Below, piece after piece: positions 7,543 through 44,815 of a DNA stretch of 64,000 nucleotides. The position numbers and the translations under genes were made by a program. Numbering within the stretch: position 1 is the first letter of the stretch; every line of letters begins with the position of its first letter. The stretch spans positions 16,779 to 80,778 of the forward strand of contig CAYTED010000007.1 in NCBI GenBank assembly GCA_964436855.1. Reading direction: 5' to 3'. The notes beneath the pieces were generated by a model. That model searched no databases. It saw only the letters and a list, made by a program, of their open reading frames with translations, and was not told the DNA's origin. This DNA is from an uncultured Bdellovibrionales bacterium. GTDB lineage: Bacteria; Patescibacteriota; Minisyncoccia; Moranbacterales; UBA1568.

Positions 7543-8289
7543 TTATTCCTCAACAATCGTTACCGACTCGATGGTTACGGGATTGACCGGACGTGACCCT
7601 TCCCCGCCCGACTCGGTCGGTGCGGATGCAATGGTATCGACGGTTTCGATCCCTGAAAGTACCTCGCCGAAAATCACGTAGTTTTTCGGAAGCGGATAAT
7701 CCGCGTGCATGATGAAGAACTGGCTTCCATTGGTATCAGGTCCGGCATTGGCCATGGCGATTGTTCCACGTTTGTACTCTCCGGTGAATGGCTCATCAGG
7801 AAAACGATATCCCGGGCCGCCACTCCCTGTGCCTGTCGGGTCCCCTCCCTGGATCATAAACCCCGGGATGGTTCGATGAAAAATCACTCCGTTATAAAAA
7901 CCTTCCCGCGCAAGAAACACAAAATTATTCACTGTTTTCGGAGTATCTTTCGCGTTCAATGCGAGAGTCATTTCTCCTACTGAAGTTTTTACTGTCGCGG
8001 TGTACTTTTTTTCCGGATCAATATTCATCGCCGGATACGTTGGATATTGTTTGACATCTTTCATAGTGGTTTCATTCTTTTTTACTGGTTGATTTTTTAC
8101 TGACGATCGCTCGAGCGAAGATTCGCCCTTGTTTTGTTGCGTGGCGACATTCTCTTTTGACGCTTCTTTTGAAAAAGAGAGCTCCAGACCTTTCTCGGGC
8201 GCCTGACGAACTGCCTCATTGGCACACCCGGAAAGAAACACTACGGCGACGAGAAGCACTCCCCCTTTGATTCCTTGTTGTAGGCTCAT
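7543..8289 (-). CDS. Cyclophilin-type peptidyl-prolyl cis-trans isomerase, lipoprotein signal
   Basis: N-terminus [24 protein letters not shown] (lipobox LSGC); cyclophilin core [25 protein letters not shown]...[19 protein letters not shown]. Confidence 0.9.
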
Positions 8290-10700
8290 AATACGATTGA
8301 TACTTTTTCAACGTTTCTTAGTGTATCAGAAACTCCCCGATCCGTCTCCTTATCGTCCGAAGAAATATGCGCGAATTGGAAAAAAAGCACCCCAAAAAGA
8401 ATGATCATTCCTATTGGAGCGATCATTGATATCCAGTTCTTCTTTCCGGGTCGAAAGAATCGGAGTAAGAGCGAGTTTCCTACAACTGAAATTGAGGAGA
8501 GCGCCATCGCGAGTCCGGCGAGCTCCGGCCTCAGCACCAATCCATACTCGGCAAAGAGCCGTGCTGCGATCGGAATGCCCATCACATTGTAGAACAGTGC
8601 AAAAAACAGATTCTGCCGAATTTTCCCCATGGTTTCGCGAGAGAGCTCAAAAGCAACGACGACATCACGGAGATCGTTTTTAACAAGCACAATGCCCCCT
8701 GCTTCCATGGCAACATCCGTCCCGCTTCCAAGAACAATCCCCAAATCGGCCTGCGCGAGTGCCGGAGCATCATTGACGCCATCCCCTACCATCGCCACCT
8801 TTTTTGACCCATTCTTCTGAAGCTCTTTTACTTTGGCCGCCTTGTCCTGTGGCAATACTTCCGAAAGCACGTGATCAATCCCCAGTTCTTTCGCGATATA
8901 GGCGGCTGTCCTTGCATTGTCTCCCGTGATCATCCACACCTCGATACCGCGCTGCTTCAGACGATTCACTGCTTCTTTGGATGTCTCTTTGATCGTATCA
9001 GCCACAGCAATTATCAGTACCGGCTCTGTATCTTCGACAAGAATCATTACGGTTTTTCCCGCCTCCTCCCATTCTTTTGCCTGTCCGACGACCTCTTTAA
9101 AAGCATTTTCGGTGAGCATCTCTTTGGCAAATGCCTGATTCCCGAGTCGGTATCGCTTCCCATTAACTCCTCCTTCGACGCCTCGGCCTGCGATCGCCTG
9201 AAACTCACTCACCGGAAGAAGCGGTAAGGATTGCTTTTCTGCGTGACGGAAAATCGCCTCTCCCAATGGATGCTCCGAATATCGCTCCAGGCTCGCAGCA
9301 AGAGAAAAAAGCGCTTTCGCATCTCGATCGTCAAGGGAAATCATATCCGTTACTTCCGGTTTTCCGACCGTGAGCGTTCCTGTTTTGTCAAAGACAATGG
9401 TATCAATTGATTCGGTTGCCTCAAGCGGTTCTCCTCCCTTGATAAGAATTCCCTGCTCGGCTCCTCGACCCGTTCCCACGAGAAGCGCCGTCGGGGTCGC
9501 AAGCCCGAGCGCACACGGGCACGCAATCACAATGACCGAAGTGAAAGCCATAATGGCAAATGAAAAGGACGCGCCCAAAGCAGCGTACCAGACAAGAAAC
9601 GTGAGCCCTGCTAAACCGATCACGGACGGTACAAACCACGACGACACTCGATCTGCAAAGCCCTGTATCGGCGCTTTGGACCCTTGTGCCTCTTCGATCA
9701 AGCGAACGATATTTGCGAGTAGCGTTTCGCTTCCCACTCGAGTGGCACGGAACTCAAAACTTCCAAAAGCATTGATCGTCCCCCCGGTTACGGCATCTCC
9801 CGGTTTTTTCTCAACCGGCAAACTCTCACCGGTAATCATCGACTCATCAATAGACGAATTCCCCTGAGTTATAATCCCGTCGACCGGTACTCGCTCTCCC
9901 GGACGCACCAAAACAATATCGTCATGCGTTACCGATTCAATAGGAATATCCTCGACCACGCCATTGCGAGATACGCGGGCATCCTTGGGAGCAAGCTGGA
10001 CGAGACGCTCGATAGCATCCGACGTTCTCCCTTTCGCTCTCGCCTCAAGCCATTTTCCGAGCAAAACGAAGGTAATGAGAAATACCGCAGTTTCAAAATA
10101 AAGTTCCGGAATTTTTTCTCCATTGATGCCAAATAAAGAATGGTGCTCTGCGACAAAAAAACCATATTGAAAAAGACTATACAGAAATGCGGTCGTTGTC
10201 CCAATGGCAATCAGCGCATCCATATTGAATGACCGGGCCCGCAGTGCCGCCCACATCCCCCGATAAAACCCCGCACCAAGTACGAGCTGTACCGGAAGAG
10301 CAAGGAGGAGTGAGAGAAACCCCATCAATGGCATTATCAAGCCCCTTCCGGGAAGCGGAAAGAAATCAAGTAACATAAAGTACAATAGTGGAAGGGAGAA
10401 GAAAAATCCCAAAAGACATTTCTTTCGATACTCCGCCACGTTTTGCTCCCTTCTTTTTTGTTCAAAATTCGTATCGCTTTCTTTTTTTTCTGCCGCACCA
10501 TATCCGGCTTTTTTCACTACATCAATAAGTTCTTGCATCCCTACATGCTCTGAGTCAAAAGCAATCGTCGCTTTTTCAATCGCAAAATTAACATTTGCTT
10601 CTTGCACTCCAGAAACTTTCCGCAGTGATCGTTCAATAATCTGCGCGCACGACGCGCAGTGCATTCCGGTGATACTGAAAAACGCTTTTTCTCTTTTCAT
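8286..10700 (-). CDS. copA: Copper-translocating P1B-type ATPase
   Basis: 804 aa; N-terminal [12 protein letters not shown]; CPC motif [12 protein letters not shown]; DKTGTLT phosphorylation site; [10 protein letters not shown]. Start overlaps the PPIase gene by 4 nt. Confidence 0.95.
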
Positions 10701-10756
10701 AACTTTTTTATAAAAACTTGAGTGGAAAGCAGAAGAGAAAACAAAAACTCATACAG

Positions 10757-12103
10757 TTATTCCACCACTTCTATCACCCCCCGATACATCCCCATAGAAC
10801 AAGAGAAAGGGATATCGCCACTTTCTTTTGGTGTAAATTCAAACACATTTTCCCCTGGTTTCAAGGTTTTTCGGATACCTGCTTTCGGAACCGTAAAGCT
10901 CGCCGCACAACTGTATGATTCCTCCGAATCGACGATGAGCCTCACCGGTTCGCCCTTCTTCACGGTAATCCGATTCGGAAAGTATCCATTTACCTTTTGC
11001 GTGATGCGCACCACCTGCACTTCTTTACTTGACCCGTTCGACCCTTCACCGGATACAATCGAAGAAGCCGTCGATCCGAGCTTCACGAGCGCAAGGCCGT
11101 TTTCGAAATTAAAGAGACCAAGTGCAATGACGACAATACCCGCTACCTTGAAAAAGAATCGCCGAAATCCACCCTTCGCCGCCGCCGAAATTCCTCCGAT
11201 ACCAAGCAATCCGGGTGCCGTTCCAAGTGCAAAGGTTCCCATCGTGATCGCTCCGACAAACGGACTCCCTTGCGTAACGACAAAGAGCTGTACCGCCTGC
11301 GTAAACCCGCATGGCAGAAAAAAGGTGGCCGCACCAAGCAGCATCGCACGACTATGGCTGTATTCTTTTTTCGTGTGCGATTGAATGCCGAGTACTTTCG
11401 CAATCCCCTTCGGAAGCATTAATTTCCACGATGAAAGTCGCGGAAACAATTCGAGGAGTTGTATTCCAATCAGAACCATCACCACTCCAACGAGAATCGT
11501 GAGTGTTCCAATCGAGAACGATGAGAGTTGAAATGTCGATCCAAGCGCGCCAAGCACTCCACCAAACACTGCAAATCCTCCTATGCGACCGAGATTGAAA
11601 TACACGTTCGGAAGAAATTTTTGTCGGATACTCGCTTCCGGATGAAGCTCACTAAACCGTGCCGATACCGCAAGCACCATTCCACCCACAATCGCCATGC
11701 ACGTCGAAAGTCCGGCGACAATCCCTAAGAGAAGCACAAACGGAAGACTCGAAAAATTTTCCGTCGAGTTCGCTCCAAGGGAAAGATTAAATAGCCCAAA
11801 CCACTGCGCGAGCACAAAAAGAACAAAAACAATACCCCCTGCAAAAAGCGCTTCGACCCACTGTGAAATATCTTGCGAAAACCACGAGCGATTTTCCGTA
11901 CCGATATCGTACCCGGCTTTTCGAAGAGCCGACTTCAAAGACGCCTCGTTTGGCTCATCCCCTTCATAAAAAACCTCCGCCACTCCCTTACGAAAATTTG
12001 TCTTTACTTTGGCAACGCCCGAAACGCGACTCAATTCCTCCTCTGTGAGAATTTCACAAGATTTACAATGCATCCCGCGAATAAAAATCTGTTTTTTCTG
12101 CAT
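10757..12103 (-). CDS. HMA-domain membrane protein: HMA + multi-TM TauE/SafE-like permease + C-terminal cupredoxin-like domain
   Basis: N-terminus GMHCKSCE (HMA); central region of ~8 predicted TM helices, Gly-rich; C-terminus VVRITQKVNGYFPNRITVKKGEPVRLIV...YSCAASFTVP...FSCSMGMYRGVIEVVE (beta-sandwich, Cys/Met-containing). Family assignment is an inference. Confidence 0.65.
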   Translation of the reverse strand: MQKKQIFIRGMHCKSCEILTEEELSRVSGVAKVKTNFRKGVAEVFYEGDEPNEASLKSALRKAGYDIGTENRSWFSQDISQWVEALFAGGIVFVLFVLAQWFGLFNLSLGANSTENFSSLPFVLLLGIVAGLSTCMAIVGGMVLAVSARFSELHPEASIRQKFLPNVYFNLGRIGGFAVFGGVLGALGSTFQLSSFSIGTLTILVGVVMVLIGIQLLELFPRLSSWKLMLPKGIAKVLGIQSHTKKEYSHSRAMLLGAATFFLPCGFTQAVQLFVVTQGSPFVGAITMGTFALGTAPGLLGIGGISAAAKGGFRRFFFKVAGIVVIALGLFNFENGLALVKLGSTASSIVSGEGSNGSSKEVQVVRITQKVNGYFPNRITVKKGEPVRLIVDSEESYSCAASFTVPKAGIRKTLKPGENVFEFTPKESGDIPFSCSMGMYRGVIEVVE

Positions 12104-12105
12104 AG

Positions 12106-12375
12106 TTATTTCCCGTTTAGCTTTGTTACTTGAAGAATCTCTTTAATCACTTCTTTCTTTTTCTTTTCACTTCCGGACTCCATCACACTCTTGAAACAGT
12201 GGTTCAGGTGCCGCTCCAGAAGTTCTCCGTTCGCCGATTTGAGAAGGCCGATCGCCGCAAGATTCTGTTGCATAATATCGATACAGTACGCATCGCTCTC
12301 AATCATCGCAATGATTTTCCCGAGAAGCGAATGCGCTTTTTTATACCGAACGAGTAGATGTTTTTTCTCCTGCAT
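12106..12375 (-). CDS. csoR: CsoR/RcnR-family metal-sensing repressor
   Basis: 89 aa; CsoR family signature C-x-H-x-C geometry (YCIDIMQQ...H...C) and four-helix length; first gene of the copper operon. Confidence 0.85.
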   Translation of the reverse strand: MQEKKHLLVRYKKAHSLLGKIIAMIESDAYCIDIMQQNLAAIGLLKSANGELLERHLNHCFKSVMESGSEKKKKEVIKEILQVTKLNGK

Positions 12376-12480: not shown

Positions 12481-13182
12481 TTATAACTGCGTATGATCCG
12501 CCGTACTCTCTTCAAATTTTCGATAATAATATCCGACATCCGCAATCCACTTCTCGACGCTTTTCTCGCTGTGCCCATCGCACGAGTAGCCGCACTTCCA
12601 GACTACCATTTCTCGCGGCGTCACACGCTCGTATTCGTACACGAGCCGCTTGATCCGTTTCGAGATCGTATTCACCGCATCGGTACGATTATCAAAACAA
12701 GTATGCCCGCCTGTTCCCATACGCTCCCGTTCCGCCCGAAATCCCCAATAATTATAACAGTCCGATCCATCAAGCTTCGGCGAACGTTTTCCCCAGTTTG
12801 ATTCTTTTTTGGCGATGCTGATAATGTATGCCGCCACCATAGGATCTTGCCTCGCAATTTGAGACGCCATAGACGCTATCGGGTATCCCTTAACCATCTT
12901 CTCGATCTTTCGCTCAAAAGAAGTTTTCATCGGGATTGGTTCGGGAATCTGGGAGAGGAGACGATCATTTTCATTGATCGCAAAAAAGAGAACTCCCAAA
13001 CAAAAAGCGACTGAAAGCAAAATGACAAAATGGGCTCCGGTTGCTATTTTCGGCTCTTCCAATGCATTCCACGATGAAATATCTGGCATATGCGCTCGGA
13101 ATCCCTTTTGCAGAAATTTTGGTTTTTTGAGTCTCTTTTTCATACATTTTCCCCTAAAAAAAGCAAAAAAGCTGGTTTTCAC
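12481..13182 (-). CDS. Membrane-anchored glucosaminidase-like (FlgJ-type peptidoglycan hydrolase) domain protein
   Basis: TM helix; IAKKESNWGK...NYWGFRA resembles the glucosaminidase ESGWGK...NLFGIKA motifs. Weak, motif-level only. Confidence 0.45.
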   Translation of the reverse strand: MKTSFFAFFRGKCMKKRLKKPKFLQKGFRAHMPDISSWNALEEPKIATGAHFVILLSVAFCLGVLFFAINENDRLLSQIPEPIPMKTSFERKIEKMVKGYPIASMASQIARQDPMVAAYIISIAKKESNWGKRSPKLDGSDCYNYWGFRAERERMGTGGHTCFDNRTDAVNTISKRIKRLVYEYERVTPREMVVWKCGYSCDGHSEKSVEKWIADVGYYYRKFEESTADHTQL

Positions 13183-13257: not shown

Positions 13258-13779
13258 CTATTCGGACCATTGCTTTCGGATCGTCTTCCGTCCCATTGGC
13301 AGAAGAAAAAAGAAAGAAACGGAAAGAATAAGCAAGATGACATTCGGATAAAATATGTACGGATGCCCCCAGCTCACGCCATCAAAAGTATAGCTTGAGA
13401 TCGGCCAAAGAAACGGGGTCGGGAAAAACTTGGCATCGTGAAAGGGAATATCGAGGAGAATATGAAATCCCCATGCTCCGAGTGGCCAAAACATTTTTTC
13501 CCGAAAATAATAAAAAAGAAAAACGACTCCCAAAAAAATAATGAGGCTGTGAGTGATATCGTAGGCAATATGAGTAAAAAATGGGATTTCCAGCGATTCC
13601 GGATGCCGCCCGGACGACCAATCGGGATGTGGGAAAATCCCGAGCCATGTCCCCACAATATACGGACCGAATGAAAAAACATCGGGCGCCATCCCAATAA
13701 ACAGCGACCAAAAAAACGCCTCTTTGTCCGATCGCCCAAAAAGCACCGATCCCCACAGGCCATGCGAGATAAAGTCCAT
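13258..13779 (-). CDS. Membrane-bound metal-dependent hydrolase-like protein (YdjM/DUF457-like)
   Basis: 173 aa, about 4 TM helices, conserved His/Asp in loops (HGLWG, HIAYDITH, HILLD). Confidence 0.55.
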   Translation of the reverse strand: MDFISHGLWGSVLFGRSDKEAFFWSLFIGMAPDVFSFGPYIVGTWLGIFPHPDWSSGRHPESLEIPFFTHIAYDITHSLIIFLGVVFLFYYFREKMFWPLGAWGFHILLDIPFHDAKFFPTPFLWPISSYTFDGVSWGHPYIFYPNVILLILSVSFFFLLPMGRKTIRKQWSE

Positions 13780-13788: not shown

Positions 13789-14028
13789 TTATGAGCCCGG
13801 GCTGTGCCGCTGAAGATAGGAAACGATATCGCCTACAGTTTCGATATGGATCAAATCCTCGTATTTCGCCCTCATCCCGAATTCTTTCTCAAATCGAGTT
13901 ACTATGGAAAAAAGACAGATGGAATCATCCGCGAGATCTTCGATTTTATCATTTATGCCAATGGATGCTTCCGACCTCCCGGTTTCCTCGGCAATCAGTG
14001 CGATAACTTTTTCATTGAGTGTATCCAT
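13789..14028 (-). CDS. Acyl carrier protein
   Basis: 79 aa; ACP fold length; DLADDSI motif with Ser for 4'-phosphopantetheine attachment. Confidence 0.75.
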   Translation of the reverse strand: MDTLNEKVIALIAEETGRSEASIGINDKIEDLADDSICLFSIVTRFEKEFGMRAKYEDLIHIETVGDIVSYLQRHSPGS

Positions 14029-14040
14029 ACACGAAGAGCA

Positions 14041-14610
14041 TTATTCGATTGTGAGAATAACGGCGACATACCCCTTTTTCTCTGCGAGAATTATACGCCC
14101 TTTTCCGGAAATTCCAAGGAGACCGTATACCCGCACCGATCGACGTTTCCAATCAATCGCGCAATGAACTTTTTTCGGATGAATCCGCAGCCCGACTCCG
14201 ATCATCTTGAGAAACGCTTCTTTTGCGCACCAATATGCCGTAATCCGGATATCGCGTTCTCTTCCGAAAACAGAACGCATCTCTCTTTGTTCAATCGGAG
14301 TCAGAAAACTCTCTCCCCATTCCTTATCATAGAATCGAATGTATTCAACATCCGCCCCGATAGGCACCGAGGATCGCGCAGCAAGACCGACTCCTTTTGT
14401 GTGGCTGATACTTACGAATATAGCGGGGATAAAAAACTTCGTGCGAGAAACGATCGTCGGCCTTCCATACGACGATCTAAAAATACCATAACCATCCCTG
14501 TCATATGAAGTAAAAAGTCGCCTGAAGGCGAATTCTTTTACTCGGCTTCCTTCTTTTTTCGAAGGATGACGATCCGGATTCTTCTTGTCTTGAATAATGA
14601 CAAATCGCAT
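14041..14610 (-). CDS. 4'-phosphopantetheinyl transferase (Sfp/EntD type)
   Basis: SISHTKG...GADVE...WCAKEAFLKMIG are PPTase motifs (GxD, WxxKEAxxK). Confidence 0.75.
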   Translation of the reverse strand: MRFVIIQDKKNPDRHPSKKEGSRVKEFAFRRLFTSYDRDGYGIFRSSYGRPTIVSRTKFFIPAIFVSISHTKGVGLAARSSVPIGADVEYIRFYDKEWGESFLTPIEQREMRSVFGRERDIRITAYWCAKEAFLKMIGVGLRIHPKKVHCAIDWKRRSVRVYGLLGISGKGRIILAEKKGYVAVILTIE

Positions 14611-14621
14611 TCAAAGAAGTA

Positions 14622-15287
14622 TTACGTCACATCGAACAATGATCGCATCTTCGAGGCGGTTATCTTTTCACCACCCCTCAATTCCAAAACCTCACCGAAA
14701 CGAAGACTATTGCTCATTCGAAACAGCGCTCGAAACGACCGCTCCAGGCCGTCAATCTGCACCACAACCACCTTTCGCCCCGGACCGACGAAAAATTCGA
14801 TTCCCCGCTTAAATTCACCCATTTGATTCCGGCAGATTTTTCCTTCCGGAAAGAGAAAGACCGTCGTTCTCTCATCAAGAAGCTCTTTCGTTCGCAGAAG
14901 CCCGAGCATCTTTTCCCGTGGCGTCGCCCCGATGTCGTACGAGCCAAGCAATCGGAGAGCAGGGCGCAGCCATTTTTTTTCCATAAAGTCATTGTCCGTC
15001 GGAAATCGAATCGGGAGAAGCTTGAGAAAGACCGGAAATGGCAGATACGCCAATACAACAAACGGGTCAATCTTCGATCGATGATTTGAGATGAGAAGCG
15101 ACCCTCGTTCAAGAGAATGAATATTTTCCGGAAGCGTCCGCTTTGCCAAATAAAAAAACCGGAGCGGTACTACCGAAATCAGATAGGCTCCAACTTGAGT
15201 GAGACTCAATAAGATATCCTTCGAGATTCTCTTTGTTTTTTTTCGCCATCTCATACACAACATGCTCTTTTTCCTTTTCTCTTCCAT
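14622..15287 (-). CDS. Lysophospholipid/1-acyl-glycerol-3-phosphate acyltransferase family protein (PlsC/OlsA-like)
   Basis: H(X)4D motif NHRSKIDP; FPEGKICRNQ (FPEG motif); N-terminal TM. Confidence 0.8.
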   Translation of the reverse strand: MEEKRKKSMLCMRWRKKTKRISKDILLSLTQVGAYLISVVPLRFFYLAKRTLPENIHSLERGSLLISNHRSKIDPFVVLAYLPFPVFLKLLPIRFPTDNDFMEKKWLRPALRLLGSYDIGATPREKMLGLLRTKELLDERTTVFLFPEGKICRNQMGEFKRGIEFFVGPGRKVVVVQIDGLERSFRALFRMSNSLRFGEVLELRGGEKITASKMRSLFDVT

Positions 15288-15388
15288 ACTACTTTATTAT
15301 ACAAGACAGCCTCACAAAGGCACAATATCGTTTTTTACAAGCGTTTTTGCTAAAATATCCTTTCCATCATAAAATCTTTACAAAGCCT

Positions 15389-16030
15389 ATGAAAAACGTC
15401 GACATTTTTCTTGCGACACAGAAAGAGGATTTTTCCTCCGCGTGGTCGCTTGTTGAAGGAGAGTTCCGAAAAAGTAAGTATATTACAGAAAGTGAACACC
15501 TCACTCCTATTCATGAGGAATATCCGCTCTCAAAGACTTTTATTATCAAAAATCCGACAGGCGAAGTCGTCGCAACGATTTCGTATATTCCCGATTCTGA
15601 TCACGGTCTTCCGCTTGATTCGTGTTTTCGAGATGAATTTACCGAGGCCGTTCGATCCAAAAATCTTCGTCTGGCGGAAATAAGTCGTCTCGCCGTTCAT
15701 CCTGATTATCGTTCACCGCTCAATGCTTTTCTTCCGGCGCTCTATAGTGTTGTACTGGCATATGGTGTGTTTGATCGGTGCGATGCGTTTGGTCTGACAG
15801 TGAACCCCAAACACTCTCTTCTCTATGACCGGTTTGGATTTTCATCGATCGGCGAAGAGAAAATGTACACGTTTTTTCATAATGTCCCCTCTCAAGCGAA
15901 GCTTCTTTTTCTTGATGAGAGCGTTAAAAGCGGTAAACGCGTACCATTTTTTATGAAAAGTCCTGATCCGAGTATCTTTACCGAAGCGTTTCTCTCCGGA
16001 AAAGAGCCTCATGCCTATTCCTTGTTCTAA
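15389..16030 (+). CDS. GNAT-fold N-acyl amino acid synthase-like protein (FeeM/OlsB family)
   Basis: The ~210-aa region from MKNVDIF... has the Acetyltransf_5-like pattern (AEISRLAVHPDYRS...). ORF-track start 15233 is probably an N-terminal over-extension; ATG at 15389 chosen. Confidence 0.6.
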   Translation: MKNVDIFLATQKEDFSSAWSLVEGEFRKSKYITESEHLTPIHEEYPLSKTFIIKNPTGEVVATISYIPDSDHGLPLDSCFRDEFTEAVRSKNLRLAEISRLAVHPDYRSPLNAFLPALYSVVLAYGVFDRCDAFGLTVNPKHSLLYDRFGFSSIGEEKMYTFFHNVPSQAKLLFLDESVKSGKRVPFFMKSPDPSIFTEAFLSGKEPHAYSLF

Positions 16031-16051
16031 AGCAGCGTTATCCAGTACCAT

Positions 16052-16792
16052 ATGTCGCTCAGCATGTTTGTCATCATCTTTGCGATTTTATTGATTCTTC
16101 TCTCTGAGGGAGTGAGGCTTTTTTTCCGGTGGCGTATTTCGCATCATATCGGCAATAAGGCTCGGCCTTTTGAGAGAAAGGACGCCTCACTTCCCTTTTC
16201 TCTGCTTATTCTCGGCGATAGCACGGCCTATGGAACGGGCGTCGACAATCCCACTCAATCTCTCGGAGGGAAAATCGGCGCATCTTTTCCTCATGTGGCG
16301 ATCTGGAATCGAGCGAAAAACGCCCTCTCTCTGAATGATCTCCCTTCAACTATAGATACCATTGCTTCTGAAAAAGGTCGTTTTGATGGCATCCTTATTG
16401 TTATTGGAGGGATCGACATGCTTCGTCTCACCCCTCCTTCGGTAGCGAGAAAAAAACTCCTCAGAACTCTTCGTATGGCAAAAAAGCTTTCTCCACACAT
16501 TGTCTTGGCACTTTCAAGCAATATTCGTTCGGCGACTTTTTTCCGCTTTCCTCTCAATCGAATTTTTGAATATGAACACCGTTCATTGGAAACCCTCTAC
16601 GGTCAAATAGCTCAGGAAGAACATATCGCGTATGTCTCCTTGTATGAACCAATTGATACTTGTCCATTCGCCAAAAATCCGGAAAAACTCTATGCTAATG
16701 ATGGGCTTCACCCAAATCACCTCGGATACGAAATTTGGTTCGAAAAAATAAAAGAACCACTGAAAAAGATTTTTCCTTCGAATATTTCATAA
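16052..16792 (+). CDS. SGNH/GDSL hydrolase (membrane-anchored)
   Basis: N-terminal TM; block I LILGDSTAYGTG; block V DGLHPNHLGY. Confidence 0.8.
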   Translation: MSLSMFVIIFAILLILLSEGVRLFFRWRISHHIGNKARPFERKDASLPFSLLILGDSTAYGTGVDNPTQSLGGKIGASFPHVAIWNRAKNALSLNDLPSTIDTIASEKGRFDGILIVIGGIDMLRLTPPSVARKKLLRTLRMAKKLSPHIVLALSSNIRSATFFRFPLNRIFEYEHRSLETLYGQIAQEEHIAYVSLYEPIDTCPFAKNPEKLYANDGLHPNHLGYEIWFEKIKEPLKKIFPSNIS

Positions 16793-16851
16793 ATGCCGTA
16801 TCACTCAGAAAAAATTTCTCCATTCCTCTTTTGTTCTTCACACTTCCTCGT

Positions 16852-17658
16852 ATGAGTTTTTTTGATATTTTACTCGAAAACTTTCTTTCTTTCGGAATTC
16901 TCCAGTGGATTGGATTCATCCTTATTTATTTTATTGTTGTTACCGTCCTCCGAATGATTTTTCTCCTCCTGATCAATCGGCATGTGTCGAGTCATGCCTT
17001 GCGCTATTCTCAGCCATTTCGAGGCGGGAAAAAGATTCTTGTTCTTGGTGATAGTATCGCCGTGGGAGCCGGTGCCGAAAAACCGGAACTCTCTATCGCC
17101 GGGAGACTCGGTCATGATCTCCCCACTTGCGAAATCCGAAACTTGGCCACTAACGGCGCACGTACTGTGGATGTTATTAAACAGCTGGAGCAAATAAAAA
17201 ATGAGACTTTTGACCTTATTATCATTTGCGTCGGAGGGAATGATATCTTTCAATTCACCCCTGTTCAGTCACTCCAAAAACCCCTCATATTGCTCACCGA
17301 TGAAGCCAATCGCTTGAGCGGAAATCAAACTATCTTCCTCGTCTATTCCAATATTGCTTTCGCACCTCTTTTCCCTGGATATTTTCGTCGTTTTTTGCAA
17401 AATCGAAACGAAAAAATCCTAAGTCTTTTTATGCACATTACCGGGGAGCGAGGAGCTTTTGCAATTGACTGCAGTCTCAGATGGAACCTCCACGAAACAA
17501 AAAAAGGCTCCCTGCGTTACTTTGCGGCAGATAAACTTCACCCAAGCGCGCTCGCGTATCAACAATGGTACAAAAAAATTTGGAAATATATTGCCAAAGA
17601 CAATCTCACTTGCGATATCGCCGATCGCCCCACCTACGCCCTTCAAGAAAAAAGCTAA
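16852..17658 (+). CDS. SGNH/GDSL hydrolase (membrane-anchored), paralog
   Basis: ILVLGDSIAVGAGA (GDS block); DKLHPSALAY (DxxH block). Start moved to ATG 16852 to avoid overlap with the upstream gene. Confidence 0.8.
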   Translation: MSFFDILLENFLSFGILQWIGFILIYFIVVTVLRMIFLLLINRHVSSHALRYSQPFRGGKKILVLGDSIAVGAGAEKPELSIAGRLGHDLPTCEIRNLATNGARTVDVIKQLEQIKNETFDLIIICVGGNDIFQFTPVQSLQKPLILLTDEANRLSGNQTIFLVYSNIAFAPLFPGYFRRFLQNRNEKILSLFMHITGERGAFAIDCSLRWNLHETKKGSLRYFAADKLHPSALAYQQWYKKIWKYIAKDNLTCDIADRPTYALQEKS

Positions 17659-17710
17659 GAGCTGCCTCTCGCTTTTCTTCTTCACAAACCAAAAAAATAT
17701 TTTTTCTCTT

Positions 17711-18595
17711 TTACTTTTTCGATGCCTTTCCGATTTTTCGTAAAAGAAAGAGTGCGACTTTCAATTTGATACGCTGTAACCATCCGCGATTTCCGAATGG
17801 CAGGTACGGTTTTTTGAGTTTTCCAACATATGGGTCAAAATGCAGTGATCGAGGAACTCTCGGGACACCCTCTTTCTTGAGCAAGAGTTTTACCACAAAG
17901 GTAAGCACTAGTCCTGCGGCAAAAAATGTCCCGATGACAAGAGAGGCGCCGGATTTTCCTTTAAAATCGACCTTATCTGGATGAAAATACGTTCGTTGCA
18001 ATAAACTCGGTGTCAGTCCAATGCCAAATTTCATGGCCATCATTTCTTCCGACATACCGTCTTGTATATCGAAGTATTCATCAAATGACATCCCTTTCGG
18101 ATCAAACACAAGCGATGCTGAACCAAATCCGATCGGCCCCGCACTGACAACAAATATCCCTTGCTTCCTCGCCTCTCCATAAAAAATGCGCCGCACTTCC
18201 GGCGAAAAGAAATCAATTCCATCTACCGCAATATCCGCTCCCGAAAGAAACGCCTCTACATTCCCCTCATCAATGGCAGGAAACACCTCCACCCGAGCAT
18301 ACGGGTTGATATCGAGAATCATCTTCTTCAGTGTTTCGGCTTTTGATTTTCCGATTGACTGCATGGTCGCTCCTATTTGTCGATTGAAATTTGCGAGTTC
18401 AAACGTATCCGGATCGGCAATGCGAAATCCACCGATTCCAAGTCTCGCCAAACCGACGACCTCAATCCCGCCGACCCCGCCCATTCCGGCGACAACGACC
18501 GTCGACTGTCGAAGTTTTTCTTGTTCTTTTTTTGAAAGTAGTCCGATATTTCGTGAGAAAGCTTCTCCAAAAAATTGTTGCTCGTTTATTTCCAT
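17711..18595 (-). CDS. ThiF/MoeB/HesA-family E1-like adenylyltransferase
   Basis: VVVAGMGGVGG Rossmann motif; E1-like fold length; no Zn CxxC; C-terminal TM-like helix. Confidence 0.8.
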   Translation of the reverse strand: MEINEQQFFGEAFSRNIGLLSKKEQEKLRQSTVVVAGMGGVGGIEVVGLARLGIGGFRIADPDTFELANFNRQIGATMQSIGKSKAETLKKMILDINPYARVEVFPAIDEGNVEAFLSGADIAVDGIDFFSPEVRRIFYGEARKQGIFVVSAGPIGFGSASLVFDPKGMSFDEYFDIQDGMSEEMMAMKFGIGLTPSLLQRTYFHPDKVDFKGKSGASLVIGTFFAAGLVLTFVVKLLLKKEGVPRVPRSLHFDPYVGKLKKPYLPFGNRGWLQRIKLKVALFLLRKIGKASKK

Positions 18596-19656
18596 ATGAT
18601 TATTGGCGCCCTTCTTGGCGAAGCTGGTGGTTTATTTCCTTTTGGGTATCCGACACGAAAAAGAATAATCGGGGTTTTCCCTTGAGATCTCGGGAAAAGT
18701 TCTTCAAGCTTTTCGATAGCCTCTTTTTGCCATTTTTGTTCTTGAAAGGACATCCTTCCGACTTTGAGCAACTCATTTATTTTTGTCCCTGCAAGACCGT
18801 ACAATGGCTGCACCGCCACTCCATTTTTTGCAAAAGAGAGCCAAATTCGCTCCAGCGCTCGCCCTCCGTCAATATAGGTTTTCCGAGCCGAGAAAGGCCC
18901 TTTCATCACAAGAAAGCCGATCGCTGAAGAATGCCTGACGAGATTTCGGCTATTTGACGACGAAATAAATCCCATCACTCGATACAATGCAGAAATTCTC
19001 TTTACGAGAGAAAAAAAGAAAGGGAAAAAATATTTTTTCCATCCAAGCCCCATGTGTTCCGGGTGAATGCCATCCTTTTCTTCATCATGAAAACGAAAAG
19101 AGTTCCCAATATGACGCCTGAGCGATATATTTCCCCACAAAAAGTTTTCAAACGAAGCTGCCAGTGAAGCAAAAGACTGTTTTTCTTTTTCGTGAATCAG
19201 CCACAGAATTTCTCCCTGAAAGGACTTGGCCTCGGTATCTGCAGCGGCAAGTATATCCTCCGAAACCTTTTCGTTTAAATATGCCCGGCGATCCGTTGAT
19301 CGTTTTCGAAGAGCCCCAAAAAGGGGGTCTTCCGGAACTCGCTTTTCACTTATACGAGCGGTAAACATTTTATCTCCTGTTTTTCCGGGGACAATATCGA
19401 CGTGTATGCCTCTTTCCGTTGCTGCAATTTTGAGATTCTCCGCCAGCGCTCCAAATGATATCGCATCACCCGGATAGAGCGGATTAATACGGAATAAGAC
19501 CCTATCCTCATCATCCTTGTCGACAAAAAAAACGTCTATTTTCTCCCGAGATACCTCGAAAATCCACGGATGCAAATTATCCCCGGATGGCGCGGTATTC
19601 GCAATTCGTATGATTCTTTCGTATGCATGCTTCCACTCCATATATTCTTTGGACAA
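18586..19656 (-). CDS. SagB-type dehydrogenase (nitroreductase superfamily)
   Basis: TAPSGDNLHPW matches the P-S-A/G-G-x-L-x-P signature of SagB-type dehydrogenases; C-terminal nitroreductase-like half (GGRALERIWLSFAKNGVAVQPL). Overlaps thiF-like gene by 10 nt. Confidence 0.65.
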   Translation of the reverse strand: MSKEYMEWKHAYERIIRIANTAPSGDNLHPWIFEVSREKIDVFFVDKDDEDRVLFRINPLYPGDAISFGALAENLKIAATERGIHVDIVPGKTGDKMFTARISEKRVPEDPLFGALRKRSTDRRAYLNEKVSEDILAAADTEAKSFQGEILWLIHEKEKQSFASLAASFENFLWGNISLRRHIGNSFRFHDEEKDGIHPEHMGLGWKKYFFPFFFSLVKRISALYRVMGFISSSNSRNLVRHSSAIGFLVMKGPFSARKTYIDGGRALERIWLSFAKNGVAVQPLYGLAGTKINELLKVGRMSFQEQKWQKEAIEKLEELFPRSQGKTPIILFRVGYPKGNKPPASPRRAPIIIWK

Positions 19657-19713: not shown

Positions 19714-21135
19714 TTATACCATCCGGAAATTTTTAAATTGCCATGGATCCGTTGCGTCGATATCTTCGGGAAACAGCCGGCTTCTTCCTTCAAGCGGTGT
19801 CCAATCGGCATATTCGCCAAAAACTTTTCCAAGATACGGTTTTGCTATTCGCAGAATTTCATCGTGCGGCATCTCGTCTGGTTCCATAATGCCGCATGTT
19901 GGATTTTTCATCGCCCATATGACCCCGGCAAGCACTCCAATGGCCACCTGAAGCGCGGTTGCCGAATTGTGTGGTGCAAGGCGCCTTGCTTCTTCAACCG
20001 AAAGGCGCGATCCATACCAATAAGTACCTTTTTTGTGCCCCATAAGAAGCACGCCAAGTTCATCCACGCCCGAAATTACCTCATCAGCAATGACGCGTTT
20101 TTCTTTTTGCAGCTCAAAATTATTTCCCTCAAATTCATGGACCGAAAGCACTGCATCATCGCAAGGATGATACGCATAATGCACCGTCGGCCGGTATGCC
20201 GGACATTCTCCCGATCCGATCGTAAGGTAATCCGCGATTGAAATCGATTCTCCATGCGTAATAAGAAATGCGTCCTGCGATCCGGCAAGTGGCACCCAGC
20301 TCCGAACGCGCGTCGACGCGCCCGGTCGACCGAGATATATCGCCGATCGACACCCAAAATCGAAACGTCGGCCATCATGCGGGAAGTGCTTCTCATGCGA
20401 ACCCCATCCGAGTTCGGATGGCTGACTCCCCTCACCTGTAAAACCATCAACCGACCAGGTATTTACAAATTCTCCATTGCGTTTTCGCGGATTTGAAATC
20501 TGTGTATCACGTTCAGCAATATGGATAACTTTTATCCCGATCTCCCGAGCAAGTATCGCCCATTCGGAACGCGTCTTTGGCTTTTCCCATTGATACCCCA
20601 CATCCTCGGCGATATGAAGAAGCGCTTTTTTCACAAAATGCGACACGAGCCCCGGATTCGCCCCATGCGTCAACACCGCAGTCGGTGCATTCTGGCCGTA
20701 TTGTTTCCGGAGCGAAAGCGCTGCTTCGCGTAACGCATAATTCGTTCGTTTTGCTTCCGGAATGGCACTGTCGGTATATCCACCCTCCCAGGGCTCAATC
20801 ACCGTATCAAGATACATCGCACCAACTTTCGCACCATAAGCAATAAGATCGATCGTCGAAACATCAACCGAGAGATTGACAATAAAATCCCCTCGGCTTA
20901 CATATTTTTTCAGTACAGAAAGATAATTGTCTTTTTTGAGCGGCTCAATATGAAACTCGATGCCATATTCTTCCGCTACATCCCTCCCTCGCTTGTCACT
21001 CGTTACAATAACGATTTGTTCTTTTGAGATATCAATATGCCGAAGAAGAAGCGGGAGCACCCCTTGTCCAACCGACCCGCATCCGATCATCACAATTTTT
21101 CCATCAAAACGAACTTCTTTTTTGTATCGCTGCAT
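19714..21135 (-). CDS. hss: Homospermidine synthase
   Basis: 473 aa. Block-by-block similarity to bacterial HSS as I recall it: IVMIGCGSVGQG, NLSVDVST, HIAERDTQ, VNTWSVDGF, TRVRSW, THGESISIADYLT, YRPTVHYAYHPCDDAVLSVHE, VDELGVLLMGH, LFPEDIDATDPWQFKNF. Confidence 0.9.
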   Translation of the reverse strand: MQRYKKEVRFDGKIVMIGCGSVGQGVLPLLLRHIDISKEQIVIVTSDKRGRDVAEEYGIEFHIEPLKKDNYLSVLKKYVSRGDFIVNLSVDVSTIDLIAYGAKVGAMYLDTVIEPWEGGYTDSAIPEAKRTNYALREAALSLRKQYGQNAPTAVLTHGANPGLVSHFVKKALLHIAEDVGYQWEKPKTRSEWAILAREIGIKVIHIAERDTQISNPRKRNGEFVNTWSVDGFTGEGSQPSELGWGSHEKHFPHDGRRFDFGCRSAIYLGRPGASTRVRSWVPLAGSQDAFLITHGESISIADYLTIGSGECPAYRPTVHYAYHPCDDAVLSVHEFEGNNFELQKEKRVIADEVISGVDELGVLLMGHKKGTYWYGSRLSVEEARRLAPHNSATALQVAIGVLAGVIWAMKNPTCGIMEPDEMPHDEILRIAKPYLGKVFGEYADWTPLEGRSRLFPEDIDATDPWQFKNFRMV

Positions 21136-27162: not shown

Positions 27163-29052
27163 TTATGCGGCGGTTCCATCGTCGGATCGACCCATATGCG
27201 TCCCATCTTCATAGGCTACCGCGTACATATCAGCGGTATCGTCATACCAGATAAACGAATACGATCCGTCCCCAACCCGCGAGGTTGTCCCGACGCGTTC
27301 ATCATCGGCAACACGAAAAATATCGATATTTACGGTACCTCCGCCCGAACCGGTAATAGATCCCGAGATACTGAAAGCAATGGAGTGGTATGTCATTAAA
27401 AAATCCAAGTGGTCAAACGTATTTGACGCATTCGCGGAAGCAAGCCTCCACCGACGTGATGTCTCGATATCGAGACGACTTAAAAGCGTATCTCCGGGCC
27501 ATCGGCTAAAAACCGAACGTGCGGTAAAGTACGCTTGTCGAACTCCAACTTCCGGATCGGTTGCCGATATATCGGTATAACAATTTTCCCATTTCAATCC
27601 CCCTTCTCCGGAAAGACGCTCCGTCTGCACGGTAACACCCGATGCGGTTCCCGTGCTTGTTGTCATATAAAAGTACCAACCGCCAATCGCGGTAAAAAAA
27701 TAATTCGTTTCCGGAATAACCGGTGCGGTAGCGGATATCGTTGAGCTGACCGCTGCTGCTGTTGTCGAGAAATTTTTCAAATTCCACCGAACCGTATGAT
27801 TGTGCGCTCCGACACCGTCGGTCGCTTTTCCGGAGGTATAGTTGATAATCCACAAACACGATACATTCAATCCCAGGTTTGTCGCGTCTGTCCGGTACGC
27901 ATCTGCCTGAAGCGTATTCGCTCCCCGGGAAAGTGTTGGCGTGAATGCTTCCATCAATCCCGCCCCACCGCCCATAATCGCGGCACCATCGGTGTATGTT
28001 TGAAAGGCTCCGGTACCAACCCGAAAATTTAATCCGGAAATCGCCGCCGTTTTATCGTAACAAACAAGCACCCCGGACTCCACTCCCGTAACCGTGTCCG
28101 GCTCTTCGATCCAAAGCGTTCGCTCGCCCCGCTGAAAATCCGCCGATGTCGTCCCTCCCATCGGAGAATCAAACTCCATTGGTAAAAGAAGAGAGTTCAG
28201 GATAGTGGTCGATGCGGACGGATCAAACTCGTAGGTTATAACCATATATACCTGCAAGTGCTCCGTAAAAGCCGACGACCCCCAAATATAAAACGAGTGC
28301 GAGGCATTCGTGGTAAAAGTCGGCTGATTCCACAAATAGGTAAACCAACGATCGGTAGCGAGTCCGGATTCGATACCGCCATTTGTATTGACGCCATTTG
28401 TGTCGATTTCCATCGAAATAGTCGGGTCGGTACCGGTGGTATCACTGTTCCCCTGAATGACAATATGCCAATCTCGAATCGTTTTTGATGACTCGGGAAG
28501 CCATGTATCAAGTGCCGGAATCGTCGCTATGGCCGTCCCCGGCTTCGTGGTCGCAAGCGCTCCGGACGGCGTATCAAGCGGCAAATAAACCGTCTTTATC
28601 TGTGTTGCCTGCGTATCGTCGTATTCATAGGTGATATACAGTCGTGCCGTAAGATCGCGCATCCCAAGCGTGGTACCGGTCGACTGATCCCAGTATGCCT
28701 GAATATCACAGGTCATATTTGTGCCAGACCAATTTGTAGAGAAGTGGGAAGTAAAATCAGCGGATACTTGATGTGAAACGTTCTCGCCGGAGTTTGCAAT
28801 ATCGTTCAGATTCGTATTCGTGGTATAGCCGGAAGCCCCAAGCTGCACCCCTATGCGCCATTCGGTAACCGTACCTCCGGTGTTCGTAATAATGTCGTTT
28901 GCCGTCATTACGCACAGAACACTCCGAAATGTAACCGTCCCACTCCCCTCCGGAATATATACCGTGAATTGGGTAAAGTTTGCCACCACTGCATCCGATG
29001 TCGAAGAAAGTGTCGGCGCTGAAAATTCGATAGTTTTGAGACGAGTAGCCAT
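27163..29052 (-). CDS. Large T/S/N/G-rich beta-type hypothetical protein (629 aa), no signal peptide
   Basis: Starts MATRLKTIEFSAPTLS with no N-terminal hydrophobic segment; paralog of 29814..31736 (shared blocks YITYEYDD(T/S)Q(A/T)TQIKTVY(L/I)PL, TIPALDT(W/E)LPE(S/T)SKT, ends RSD(D/N)GTA). Confidence 0.6.
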   Translation of the reverse strand: MATRLKTIEFSAPTLSSTSDAVVANFTQFTVYIPEGSGTVTFRSVLCVMTANDIITNTGGTVTEWRIGVQLGASGYTTNTNLNDIANSGENVSHQVSADFTSHFSTNWSGTNMTCDIQAYWDQSTGTTLGMRDLTARLYITYEYDDTQATQIKTVYLPLDTPSGALATTKPGTAIATIPALDTWLPESSKTIRDWHIVIQGNSDTTGTDPTISMEIDTNGVNTNGGIESGLATDRWFTYLWNQPTFTTNASHSFYIWGSSAFTEHLQVYMVITYEFDPSASTTILNSLLLPMEFDSPMGGTTSADFQRGERTLWIEEPDTVTGVESGVLVCYDKTAAISGLNFRVGTGAFQTYTDGAAIMGGGAGLMEAFTPTLSRGANTLQADAYRTDATNLGLNVSCLWIINYTSGKATDGVGAHNHTVRWNLKNFSTTAAAVSSTISATAPVIPETNYFFTAIGGWYFYMTTSTGTASGVTVQTERLSGEGGLKWENCYTDISATDPEVGVRQAYFTARSVFSRWPGDTLLSRLDIETSRRWRLASANASNTFDHLDFLMTYHSIAFSISGSITGSGGGTVNIDIFRVADDERVGTTSRVGDGSYSFIWYDDTADMYAVAYEDGTHMGRSDDGTAA

Positions 29053-40703: not shown

Positions 40704-40806
40704 AGAGTCATTTCGGTGAATACCCTTATTATACCGCTTGTTTTTCTTTTTTTCCACACAAAAGGAGGGCTTCCGCCCTCCGTAAAAATGTGTTTTGATA
40801 TTCTCC

Positions 40807-42985: not shown

Positions 42986-43013
42986 ATCCGAACAAATGTA
43001 CATAAAAAAGAGA

Positions 43014-43490
43014 CTATCGGGATACCGACGCAATAGTCGTATCATTCGAATCGCATGCCTGAACCGTCACGATATTATTCGCATCCACCTGCACAGAATA
43101 CCGCGTGTGCGATGCGGATCCGTTCTCCGGATCATAAGGAATTGTTTTCAAATACCGCGCAAGCTCTCCCGAAAGATCGATACAATCACTTCCGCCAGAA
43201 ACACTACATACGTCCGTGCTTATGGCGCAGCCGGATCCGTCTGTCGATATTTCGCGCTCGGTCGTATCGAGGCCCGATGGCAACTCTCCACGATTATCCA
43301 CGATATACTGGTGAACCGCACTTAAAATGGATTGTATATCGGAAAGTCTGCGCGCGTCTCGAGCATCACGAAACCGCGTTGCTGGATCAAGCGATACGAT
43401 CACCACCGTTGCCAAAACCGCGATGATCCCAATCACGAGAAGAATTTCAAGAAGGGTAAAACCTTTTTTCTTTGTGTGTTTCGAAGTCAT
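43014..43490 (-). CDS. Type IV pilin (prepilin with class III signal)
   Basis: MTSKHTKKKG/FTLLEILLVIGIIAVLATVVIVSL: G-F-T-L-L-E prepilin peptidase site plus hydrophobic alpha1 helix; C-terminal Cys pair. Confidence 0.8.
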   Translation of the reverse strand: MTSKHTKKKGFTLLEILLVIGIIAVLATVVIVSLDPATRFRDARDARRLSDIQSILSAVHQYIVDNRGELPSGLDTTEREISTDGSGCAISTDVCSVSGGSDCIDLSGELARYLKTIPYDPENGSASHTRYSVQVDANNIVTVQACDSNDTTIASVSR

Positions 43491-43497
43491 ATATCAT

Positions 43498-44801: not shown

Positions 44802-44815
44802 ACCTTCATTGTACC

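Follow-up and report, generated by a model that had tools for sequence, protein, structure and literature searches.

A conserved gene cluster of a patescibacterial genome with a predicted acyl carrier protein-dependent acyl-oxazolone pathway

Acyl-oxazolones were discovered between 2020 and 2023, and their function is unknown even in Mycobacterium tuberculosis. The Patescibacteria, or candidate phyla radiation (CPR), are thought to make almost no lipids or secondary metabolites themselves and to rely on lipids from their hosts. The enzymology of the acyl-oxazolone pathway has been established for OxzAB of Pseudoalteromonas rubra (bioRxiv 10.1101/2020.06.11.147165), for TyzA/TyzC/TyzB of M. tuberculosis (PMC10404671) and for TrzA/TrzS (Rv1356c/Rv1355c; PMC12856293). 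In these systems an acyltransferase makes an N-acyl aromatic amino acid, a ThiF-like enzyme carries out an ATP-dependent cyclisation and a flavin-dependent oxidoreductase (FDO) desaturates the C-alpha-C-beta bond (PMC10404671; bioRxiv 10.1101/2020.06.11.147165; PMC12856293). The literature that we searched contained no link of Patescibacteria to oxazolone or N-acyl amino acid clusters. Here we analyse a 64,000-nucleotide stretch of contig CAYTED010000007.1 (hereafter the window) from a bacterium of the Moranbacterales. It contains a gene cluster that probably encodes an acyl-oxazolone lipid pathway dependent on an acyl carrier protein (ACP) and equipped with its own acyl-supply module, a CPR-specific variant of the known systems.

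The unit is most likely an eight-gene lipid biosynthetic cluster extending from 13789 to 19656. A previous reading of the same DNA, made from the letters alone (the sequence-only reading), had named six of these genes, from the ACP to the second SGNH hydrolase, in a divergent arrangement. The open reading frame (ORF) map places all six where they had been put, each exceeds its Pfam gathering score and the expected motifs are intact; these identities and the arrangement were thus borne out. The extent was not, as the unit runs on to 19656 with ThiF and nitroreductase genes that had been left out. The features are as follows.

13789-14028, minus strand: stand-alone ACP, 79 aa (PF00550, 36.4 bits)
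14041-14610, minus strand: Sfp-like 4'-phosphopantetheinyl transferase (PPTase), 189 aa (PF01648, 42.8 bits)
14622-15254, minus strand: acyltransferase of the PlsC/lysophospholipid acyltransferase (LPLAT) superfamily, 210 aa, ORF extendable to 15287 (PF01553, 37.9 bits)
15255-15388, no strand: divergent intergenic region, the spacer between the LPLAT-PPTase-ACP and FeeM-SGNH-SGNH operons
15389-16030, plus strand: FeeM-family N-acyl amino acid synthase (GNAT), 213 aa (PF21926, 100.8 bits)
16052-16792, plus strand: membrane-anchored SGNH/GDSL hydrolase 1 (SGNH1), 246 aa (PF13472, 54.9 bits)
16852-17658, plus strand: membrane-anchored SGNH/GDSL hydrolase 2 (SGNH2), 268 aa from the ATG at 16852, ORF opening at 16735 (PF13472, 60.5 bits)
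17711-18595, minus strand: ThiF/E1-like adenylating enzyme, 294 aa (PF00899, 127.5 bits)
18586-19656, minus strand: Acg/FDO-type flavin oxidoreductase of the nitroreductase superfamily, 351-356 aa (matches to NF011424 and NF047509)
13258-13779, minus strand: membrane protein at the end of the ACP operon, 173 aa; peripheral, not core

The features expected of an oxazolone system are found in this unit: a FeeM-type GNAT near ThiF and FDO genes, a ThiF-like protein with an intact ATP/Mg motif adjoining the FDO, and an FDO that is Acg-like. The FeeM and ThiF genes lie 1.7 kb apart, and the nitroreductase gene overlaps the start of the ThiF gene by 10 nt. FeeM, ThiF and nitroreductase together are the published acyl-oxazolone signature, and an oxazolone pathway is therefore favoured over an ornithine-lipid pathway. 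Domain identities, intact motifs, gene fusions and conserved linkage are all directly observed. The 989-aa family NF011425 aligns to the window FeeM, ThiF and nitroreductase proteins in that order, and the 679-aa family NF011424 aligns to ThiF and nitroreductase; the three-domain fusion means that the GNAT, ThiF and nitroreductase genes are linked by fusion elsewhere. With this link, repeated in the gene neighbourhoods described below, and with the GNAT at 22.1 bits against a gathering score of 22.4 for PF13444, the OlsB/OlsA ornithine-lipid frame of the sequence-only reading is not supported. An OlsA-like O-acylation by the PlsC-type enzyme may still occur, but nothing supports it specifically.

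The ThiF-like protein matches NF006077 with 331 bits, above the cutoff of that model. It scores 295 bits with the fusion family NF011424 and 206 bits with NF011425 (positions 313-585), as against 63-87 bits with the ThiF/MoeB/TcdA models. The ATP site (GxGxxG, D61, R72, K85, D125 and D128) is invariant in 36 homologues; the counterpart of TrzS D217 was picked from the motif and not from an alignment with TrzS. The protein has zero cysteines, its subfamily is without a conserved CxxC and a hydrophobic helix is located towards the C-terminus (residues 217-235). The lack of cysteine alongside an intact ATP site argues against sulfur-relay or E1-thioester chemistry, and the helix would fit a lipid, membrane-proximal small-molecule substrate. 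The solved relatives of the protein include TcdA, an enzyme that also forms an oxazolone ring (PMC12596934). The chemistry of the ThiF family consists of adenylation of a carboxylate followed by attack of varied nucleophiles (PMC12596934). We predict that the window protein is an ATP-dependent cyclodehydratase similar to TyzB and OxzB.

The nitroreductase matches NF011424 with 117.7 bits (positions 329-663 of 679) and the Acg family NF047509 with 118 bits (cutoff 199); other matches are to the Rv1355c family (85 bits) and to positions 872-968 of NF011425. An AlphaFold2 model (pLDDT 75, pTM 0.79) has as its top match in the PDB entry 2ymv (E = 4.5e-11, TM 0.68/0.72), the M. smegmatis homologue of Acg. 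The same entry is reported as the nearest solved structure of the TrzS desaturase domain (PMC12856293). The enzyme is predicted to be a TyzC-like N-acyl amino acid alpha,beta-desaturase; its placement as FDO-A rather than FDO-B follows ThiF adjacency alone.

Judged by family models, the GNAT is a FeeM-family N-acyl amino acid synthase, as had been suggested in the sequence-only reading. The PF21926 match covers 151 of the 158 profile positions at 100.8 bits, and the sole sequence match in the PDB is FeeM itself (2g0b, E = 1.2e-12 over 134 residues). The OlsB-type model PF13444 gives 22.1 bits over 60 residues (E = 2.6e-4), below its gathering score. Identity as a LuxI-type synthase of acyl-homoserine lactones was rejected, there being no Autoind_synth match at E <= 0.01 in Pfam and no LuxI-type NCBIfam match. 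The PEP-CTERM/exosortase-associated acyltransferase TIGR03694 was likewise set aside (19.1 bits, cutoff 111.95; no exosortase gene seen in the window). The GNAT aligns to the N-terminal part of NF011425 (positions 31-194), and Glu97 of its LAE motif is invariant in 19 homologues. A word-indexed search with the GNAT gave one relative. An exhaustive HMMER search of 1.84 billion representatives gave 1416 matches and shows the GNAT to be an isolated branch of a large family, with one relative above 50% identity (in the locus L002) and the next at 37%.

The neighbourhoods of the ThiF subfamily support the same assignment. GTDB genomes were scanned with a ThiF alignment, and 80 loci among the matches listed, 40 of them with full flanks, were searched by jackhmmer; the counts that follow refer to these. 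FeeM is found within 10 kb of ThiF in 60 of the 80 loci (34 of the 40 with full flanks) and nitroreductase in 59 (31 of 40); 72 have one or both as neighbours. ThiF-nitroreductase fusions of 672-701 aa are present in 20 of the 80. FeeM-ThiF-nitroreductase adjacency is the criterion used in the literature for oxazolone clusters (PMC12856293). The ACP/PPTase/LPLAT set occurs in only two of these mostly non-CPR (proteobacterial and planctomycete) loci, one in a metagenome-assembled genome (MAG) of Saccharibacteria and the other in the unclassified MAG SZUA-486.

Some of these neighbourhoods deserve mention in their own right. In Undibacterium pigrum DSM 19792 (locus L042, 8860-11966) FeeM-like, ThiF and nitroreductase genes stand in a row as separate overlapping ORFs, the ThiF being 45% identical to that of the window. 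The oxzAB genes of this species make oxazolones (bioRxiv 10.1101/2020.06.11.147165), and L042 may be that locus or a second system. A contig labelled Nanoarchaeota (L010, 6083-16312) carries a ThiF of the same subfamily (49% identity) without FeeM or nitroreductase; the neighbours are a patatin phospholipase, two alpha/beta hydrolases (DUF915/palmitoyl-thioesterase-like), an AMP-forming ligase with an 82-aa ORF, a B12-radical SAM enzyme and a VTT/DedA protein. Here a DPANN archaeon may be putting the ThiF subfamily to another use, in lipid scavenging. In an Omnitrophota MAG and on a 1.17-Mb contig (L011 and L012), FeeM/ThiF(/nitroreductase) genes sit amid PEP-CTERM/exosortase genes and MMPL or MacB transporters, which suggests that oxazolone-type clusters are linked to exosortase systems in diderm bacteria.

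The second module of the cluster would supply the acyl group. The ACP diverges from housekeeping AcpP (best NCBIfam ACP model 46.7 bits, cutoff 66) and retains the serine of its D-S-I motif at about residue 36. The PPTase has its best NCBIfam matches with the Sfp-type enzymes HetI, AusB and EntD, and its GADVE and WCAKEAFLK motifs are intact. In the LPLAT the H58-X4-D and FPEG motifs are intact, although HX4D, FPEG and PF01553 mark the whole LPLAT superfamily and not OlsA specifically. Among NCBIfam models it matches best the acyltransferase domain of Aas, the acyl-ACP:phospholipid O-acyltransferase (NF006386; 52.6 bits over profile positions 417-554 of 1147), compared with 30.5 bits for the canonical PlsC model TIGR00530 (cutoff 103); a sequence search of the PDB gave no match. 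Identity as the bifunctional Aas was rejected, the window protein holding the LPLAT domain only. The LPLAT belongs to an acyltransferase subfamily dedicated to the cluster, since 11 of its 13 closest metagenomic homologues adjoin PPTase, ACP, FeeM, ThiF or nitroreductase genes. No acyl-CoA/acyl-ACP ligase, housekeeping AcpP or AcpS was seen among the approximately 50 ORFs scanned in the window, and neither the cluster nor the CPR-type loci described below contain an AMP-binding gene.

The two hydrolases are paralogues with about 30% identity. Each has a single N-terminal hydrophobic helix, which spans residues 3-21 in SGNH1 and 23-41 in SGNH2. The motifs are GDS and DGLH in the former and GDS, GGND and DKLH in the latter. 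Sequence searches of the PDB returned weak, generic lipase/esterase matches only. Neither protein has a positive N-region, and basic residues follow the helix, as they do in the orthologues. By the positive-inside rule, these residues tentatively point to catalytic domains that face the cytoplasm and are tethered to the membrane, rather than to secreted lipases. The pair is kept in seven of 14 CPR-type loci. Two others (L006 and L013) have a palmitoyl-thioesterase-like alpha/beta hydrolase in its place, and because the fold can be exchanged in this way, lipase or thioesterase activity appears to be the required function of the hydrolase genes.

The cluster genes recur together in at least 13 other contigs, in shuffled order and with protein identity falling to about 25-30%. 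Recurrence across such shuffled and distant contigs shows that the arrangement in the window is not a chance juxtaposition, and the conservation of synteny that the sequence-only reading had proposed as a check was found. Locus L002 is colinear with the window (55-85% protein identity). ACP/PPTase/LPLAT also recur with genes of the FeeM-ThiF-nitroreductase triad in L003-L005 (Candidatus Moranbacteria MAG), L008, L009, L013 and L014 (Saccharibacteria MAG). De novo clustering of ORFs over the 14 CPR-type loci gave the following family counts: PPTase and ACP 14 each, LPLAT 13, ThiF 12, FeeM 11 (the FeeM and ACP pair likewise 11), MacB/FtsX permease and ABC (ATP-binding cassette) ATPase nine each, nitroreductase eight, SGNH (as pairs) and HlyD-like adaptor seven each, VTT/DedA four, and dihydroorotate (DHO)-dehydrogenase-like protein and alpha/beta hydrolase three each. 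Absences mostly fall at contig ends. The order LPLAT-PPTase-ACP is almost always kept, and the ACP gene overlaps the start of FeeM in L008 and L014. The earlier suggestion of a private carrier and PPTase serving an acyl-transfer pathway is upheld. A metagenome scan from the LPLAT side, made with a narrow LPLAT alignment and independent of the ThiF-side loci, gave 33 loci; partner genes flank 11 of the 13 closest homologues as against one of the 20 weaker matches.

We note further genes in some of these loci. Beside FeeM in the alpha/beta-hydrolase variant of the cluster (L006 12638-13726, L013 18222-19346 and L096 1513-2676) lies a dihydroorotate-dehydrogenase-like flavoenzyme (PF01180), which may catalyse an additional redox tailoring reaction. 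L002 (45-992) has a membrane fatty acid desaturase (PF00487, an O2-dependent family) next to the ACP side of its cluster, with no counterpart in the window; it hints at tailoring of the acyl chain and at least occasional exposure to oxygen.

From these data a pathway can be proposed. The Sfp-like PPTase, whose domain is observed and whose function here is putative, would convert the dedicated ACP to its holo form. A fatty acyl group would then be placed on the ACP; this is a step that we propose with low confidence. The preferred candidate for it is the cluster-specific LPLAT, which may act together with the membrane-tethered SGNH enzymes on pre-existing, probably host-derived, glycerolipids. 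The LPLAT is favoured as the acyl exchanger between glycerolipid and ACP because of its likeness to the Aas domain and the near-constant LPLAT-PPTase-ACP order. The FeeM-type synthase would take the acyl group from acyl-ACP and attach it to the alpha-amino group of a probably aromatic amino acid, yielding an N-acyl amino acid. By homology and context, ThiF would adenylate the carboxylate, allowing the amide oxygen to close the ring to a 5(4H)-oxazolone, and the FDO-type flavoenzyme would introduce the C-alpha=C-beta double bond. We infer that the product would be a 2-alkyl-4-ylidene-oxazol-5-one or a close derivative. As a lipid or a signal, it would remain with the membrane or be exported. 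Most relatives have a MacB-type ABC exporter in the cluster, and none was found anywhere in the window.

A more specific proposal, which we regard as doubtful, gives the cluster an acyl-scavenging front end. The LPLAT, run in the lysolipid-forming direction and possibly helped by the SGNH enzymes, would pass acyl groups from host glycerolipids to the private holo-ACP without ATP or a ligase; the ACP would feed FeeM and the reactive oxazolone would be exported by MacB to the cell surface or the host. If this is true, it would explain part of the lysolipid enrichment reported for CPR cells, and the cluster would encode a lipid signal or an acylating agent directed from episymbiont to host.

Several considerations weigh against an ACP-dependent oxazolone pathway. 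Everything beyond the domain identities rests on homology and context, and the product is a predicted one. The characterised OxzA, TyzA and TrzA take acyl-CoA and not acyl-ACP (PMC10404671; PMC12856293; bioRxiv 10.1101/2020.06.11.147165), and the characterised desaturases need O2 (PMC10404671; PMC12856293), while the contig carries NrdD and NiFe hydrogenase genes of anaerobe type. Genes for peroxiredoxin, thioredoxin and MsrB are also on the contig. ThiF and the nitroreductase match the TrzS family model only modestly, with 64.5 and 85 bits, respectively, and kinship with TyzB, TyzC and OxzB is judged from family models and context, not from direct alignment. No acyl-ACP synthetase, fab gene or other loader of the ACP was seen in the cluster or among the window ORFs scanned, and the roles given here to the LPLAT and to both SGNH enzymes are guesses. 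Finally, some CPR versions of the cluster lack the nitroreductase despite full flanks, and in L014 it is truly absent; an unsaturated oxazolone may thus not be the end product in every case.

The alternatives account for parts of the data. We consider it unlikely that the product is an ornithine-lipid-like compound, made by a GNAT that N-acylates in the manner of OlsB and an LPLAT that O-acylates a hydroxyl in the manner of OlsA, with remodelling by the SGNH pair and with ThiF and nitroreductase as accessory or unrelated genes. Both Ols steps use acyl-ACP. The LPLAT, with its HX4D and FPEG motifs, resembles an acyltransferase domain that uses acyl-ACP, its gene keeps a conserved order with those of PPTase and ACP, and the GNAT shares a broad clan with OlsB, to which its marginal PF13444 match (E = 2.6e-4) also points. 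That match is nevertheless below the gathering score, with FeeM 79 bits higher, and the scheme leaves no role for ThiF (12 of the 14 CPR-type loci) or nitroreductase (eight of 14), both of which are fused to FeeM domains elsewhere. OlsA, moreover, needs a 3-hydroxyacyl chain from the type II fatty acid synthase (FAS II), and the approximately 50 window ORFs scanned include no fab genes. We know of no ols locus with a private ACP or PPTase. Far less probable still, indeed barely credible, is that ThiF and nitroreductase have nothing to do with the lipid genes and instead modify a ribosomal peptide by azoline oxidation, as in thiazole/oxazole-modified microcins, or activate a sulfur carrier of the ThiS/MoaD type. 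ThiF-like and nitroreductase-fold proteins are both used in such pathways (PMC12596934). Against this, YcaO is missing, as is any ORF for a small precursor or a GG-ended carrier, and there is hardly any free intergenic space around the pair; the ThiF is cysteine-free in a subfamily without conserved CxxC, the nitroreductase is of the Acg/FDO type and FeeM is the dominant neighbour of the ThiF subfamily among the listed loci.

The other two alternatives retain the lipid genes and differ in how they connect them. In one, which strikes us as quite unlikely, the ACP carries an N-acyl-aminoacyl group: ThiF adenylates the substrate, the thiol of holo-ACP captures the activated group as adenylate or oxazolone and the LPLAT passes it on to a lipid or glycan hydroxyl, the hydrolases editing or releasing the ester-linked lipoamino acid that MacB exports. 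A ThiF-like enzyme that loads a phosphopantetheine arm would, to our knowledge, be unprecedented. FeeM is itself ACP-dependent, its gene overlaps that of the ACP in L008 and L014, and the donor for FeeM would be left unexplained where acyl-CoA and fatty acid synthase may be lacking. On the other hand, no separate fatty-acyl-ACP loader would be needed, ACP, PPTase, LPLAT and ThiF are the four most constant families (14, 14, 13 and 12 of the 14 loci) and form a single ThiF-LPLAT-PPTase-ACP run in L013, and the dispensability of the nitroreductase in some loci fits a ThiF that activates rather than forms a terminal heterocycle, in line with the varied nucleophiles that follow adenylation in this family (PMC12596934). 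It is similarly improbable that two systems merely travel together, an Aas-like module of ACP, PPTase, LPLAT and SGNH lipases that re-acylates salvaged lysolipids into phospholipids and an independent FeeM-ThiF-nitroreductase module for a signalling lipid. The best family match of the LPLAT is indeed the lysophospholipid-acylating domain of Aas, CPR cells are reported to be rich in lysolipids and incapable of making lipids (bioRxiv 10.1101/465690), and outside the CPR the triad is without ACP/PPTase/LPLAT in 78 of the 80 listed loci. Nonetheless, the linkage survives the shuffling of gene order across the 14 loci, even where identity drops to about 25-30%, and partner genes accompany almost all of the closest LPLAT homologues. 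In two lineages translation of the ACP is coupled to that of FeeM, and there is no AMP-forming ligase to run a cycle of the Aas type. The ACP-dependent oxazolone pathway is the reading that we prefer.

The setting is that of a CPR bacterium. The closest ThiF homologues, among the matches listed, are labelled Candidatus Moranbacteria, and the HypF, HypE and HypD proteins of the window are 61-89% identical to those flanking the cluster in a Moranbacteria MAG (L003). The window also holds type IV pilus genes and many ORFs without a family, and fits an ultra-small, mostly anaerobic CPR bacterium. The small-genome context assumed in the sequence-only reading agrees with these nearest relatives, which are MAGs of Candidatus Moranbacteria and Saccharibacteria. 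An earlier study describes CPR bacteria as incapable of membrane lipid synthesis and rich in lysolipids (bioRxiv 10.1101/465690). The near-restriction of ACP/PPTase/LPLAT plus triad to the CPR fits this description.

At the edges of the cluster, two candidate members were rejected. The 173-aa membrane protein (two or three hydrophobic helices; no Pfam or NCBIfam match) is kept only in the closest relatives L001 and L002 (76% identity). A 473-aa protein of the saccharopine dehydrogenase family (19714-21135, minus strand), with the size and architecture of homospermidine synthase (PF03435 and PF16653), abuts the nitroreductase gene. Its counterpart in L002, the only locus to conserve it, is 87% identical and in the same position; it is absent from the other CPR-type loci, and the gene is probably outside the cluster. 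A polyamine was considered as acyl acceptor in view of this neighbour. Promoter-like hexamer pairs occur on both strands of the divergent region (15334-15375, plus; 15395-15366, minus) as weak, consensus-only matches; the scan for promoters and terminators was otherwise uninformative, and an Rfam scan of the window gave no RNA family match.

Directly upstream of the cluster (8286-12375, minus strand) lies a copper module that comprises a CopA-type P-type ATPase, an unusual 448-aa HMA-DsbD_2-cupredoxin fusion and a CsoR-like repressor; the Moranbacteria locus L003 likewise has a metal module beside its cluster. A 233-aa membrane-anchored protein (12481-13182, minus strand) with weak FlgJ/glucosaminidase-like matches (E ~2e-4) and no homologue in the related loci may be a peptidoglycan hydrolase. 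Further away, two adjacent genes (38561-39631 and 39645-40826, minus strand) with weak Fn3-like matches only are 98% identical over 317 aa, which indicates a very recent tandem duplication. Near them are two genes that are 32% identical to each other (40807-41847 and 41921-43045), and the Fn3-like tandem genes lie just upstream of a block of type IV pilus genes (43014-49434). The ORFs at 27163-29052 and 29814-31736 (minus strand; about 630-640 aa) are paralogues with 44% identity and no Pfam match, and the 641-aa ORF at 34853-36778 is likewise without a match.

The 8-11 genes conserved in this cluster are a concrete, clonable candidate for a lipid or signal made by CPR bacteria, and offer a tractable way to ask how CPR cells get activated acyl groups. 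The finding would extend the oxazolone pathway to an ACP-dependent form and suggests that the pathway may operate in low-oxygen organisms.

Comparison with characterised systems places the cluster between several of them. OlsB/OlsA likewise combine an acyl-ACP-dependent N-acyltransferase with an LPLAT-family O-acyltransferase to give an amino-acid-containing lipid. They differ in that OlsB belongs to PF13444, which the window GNAT does not, in their use of housekeeping AcpP and of 3-hydroxyacyl-ACP from FAS II, and in the lack of ThiF, FDO, private ACP/PPTase, SGNH pair and exporter. The Aas acyltransferase domain, the best family match of the LPLAT, handles ACP-bound acyl groups at the membrane; the likeness is confined to this domain of about 140 residues (52.6 bits, cutoff 1221), and the AMP-forming ligase half that loads the ACP is missing here. 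The FeeM/FeeL pair of the environmental DNA fee cluster (PDB 2g0b) shares the family PF21926 with the window GNAT, at low identity. It takes its acyl group from a dedicated, cluster-encoded ACP, and the window likewise has FeeM and ACP genes in one cluster; we infer that the window ACP serves the window synthase. The fee cluster tailors its N-acyl tyrosine by other enzymes, without a ThiF-FDO pair.

OxzAB and TrzAS use an N-acyltransferase, a ThiF cyclodehydratase and an FDO desaturase to make 2-alkyl-4-arylidene-oxazol-5-ones. The resemblance lies in the match of the window ThiF and nitroreductase to the ThiF-nitroreductase fusion model NF011424 and in 2ymv as the nearest structure. In OxzAB and TrzAS, ThiF and FDO are fused, giving two genes in total, whereas in the window they are separate and overlapping within a set of eight or more genes; acyl-CoA donors and O2 as acceptor contrast with a context that suggests a private ACP donor and a largely anaerobic host. 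TyzACB (Rv2336, Rv2337c and Rv2338c), which makes N-acyl tyrazolone (PMC10404671), differs in its acyl-CoA donor, in the lack of ACP, PPTase, LPLAT and SGNH, and in its host, an actinobacterium that is aerobic and has complete lipid synthesis. TyzA, for which only about 41 homologues are known, shows no likeness to FeeM that its sequence would reveal. In organisation the two are alike: both have three separate genes, for an N-acyltransferase of the FeeM/AHL-synthase fold, a single-domain FDO and a ThiF-like protein (about 350 and 300 aa, respectively), with FDO and ThiF in one operon that is divergent from or beside the acyltransferase gene. A gene for a lipid exporter often lies close by, MmpL9 in the case of TyzACB and a MacB-type exporter in the CPR relatives.

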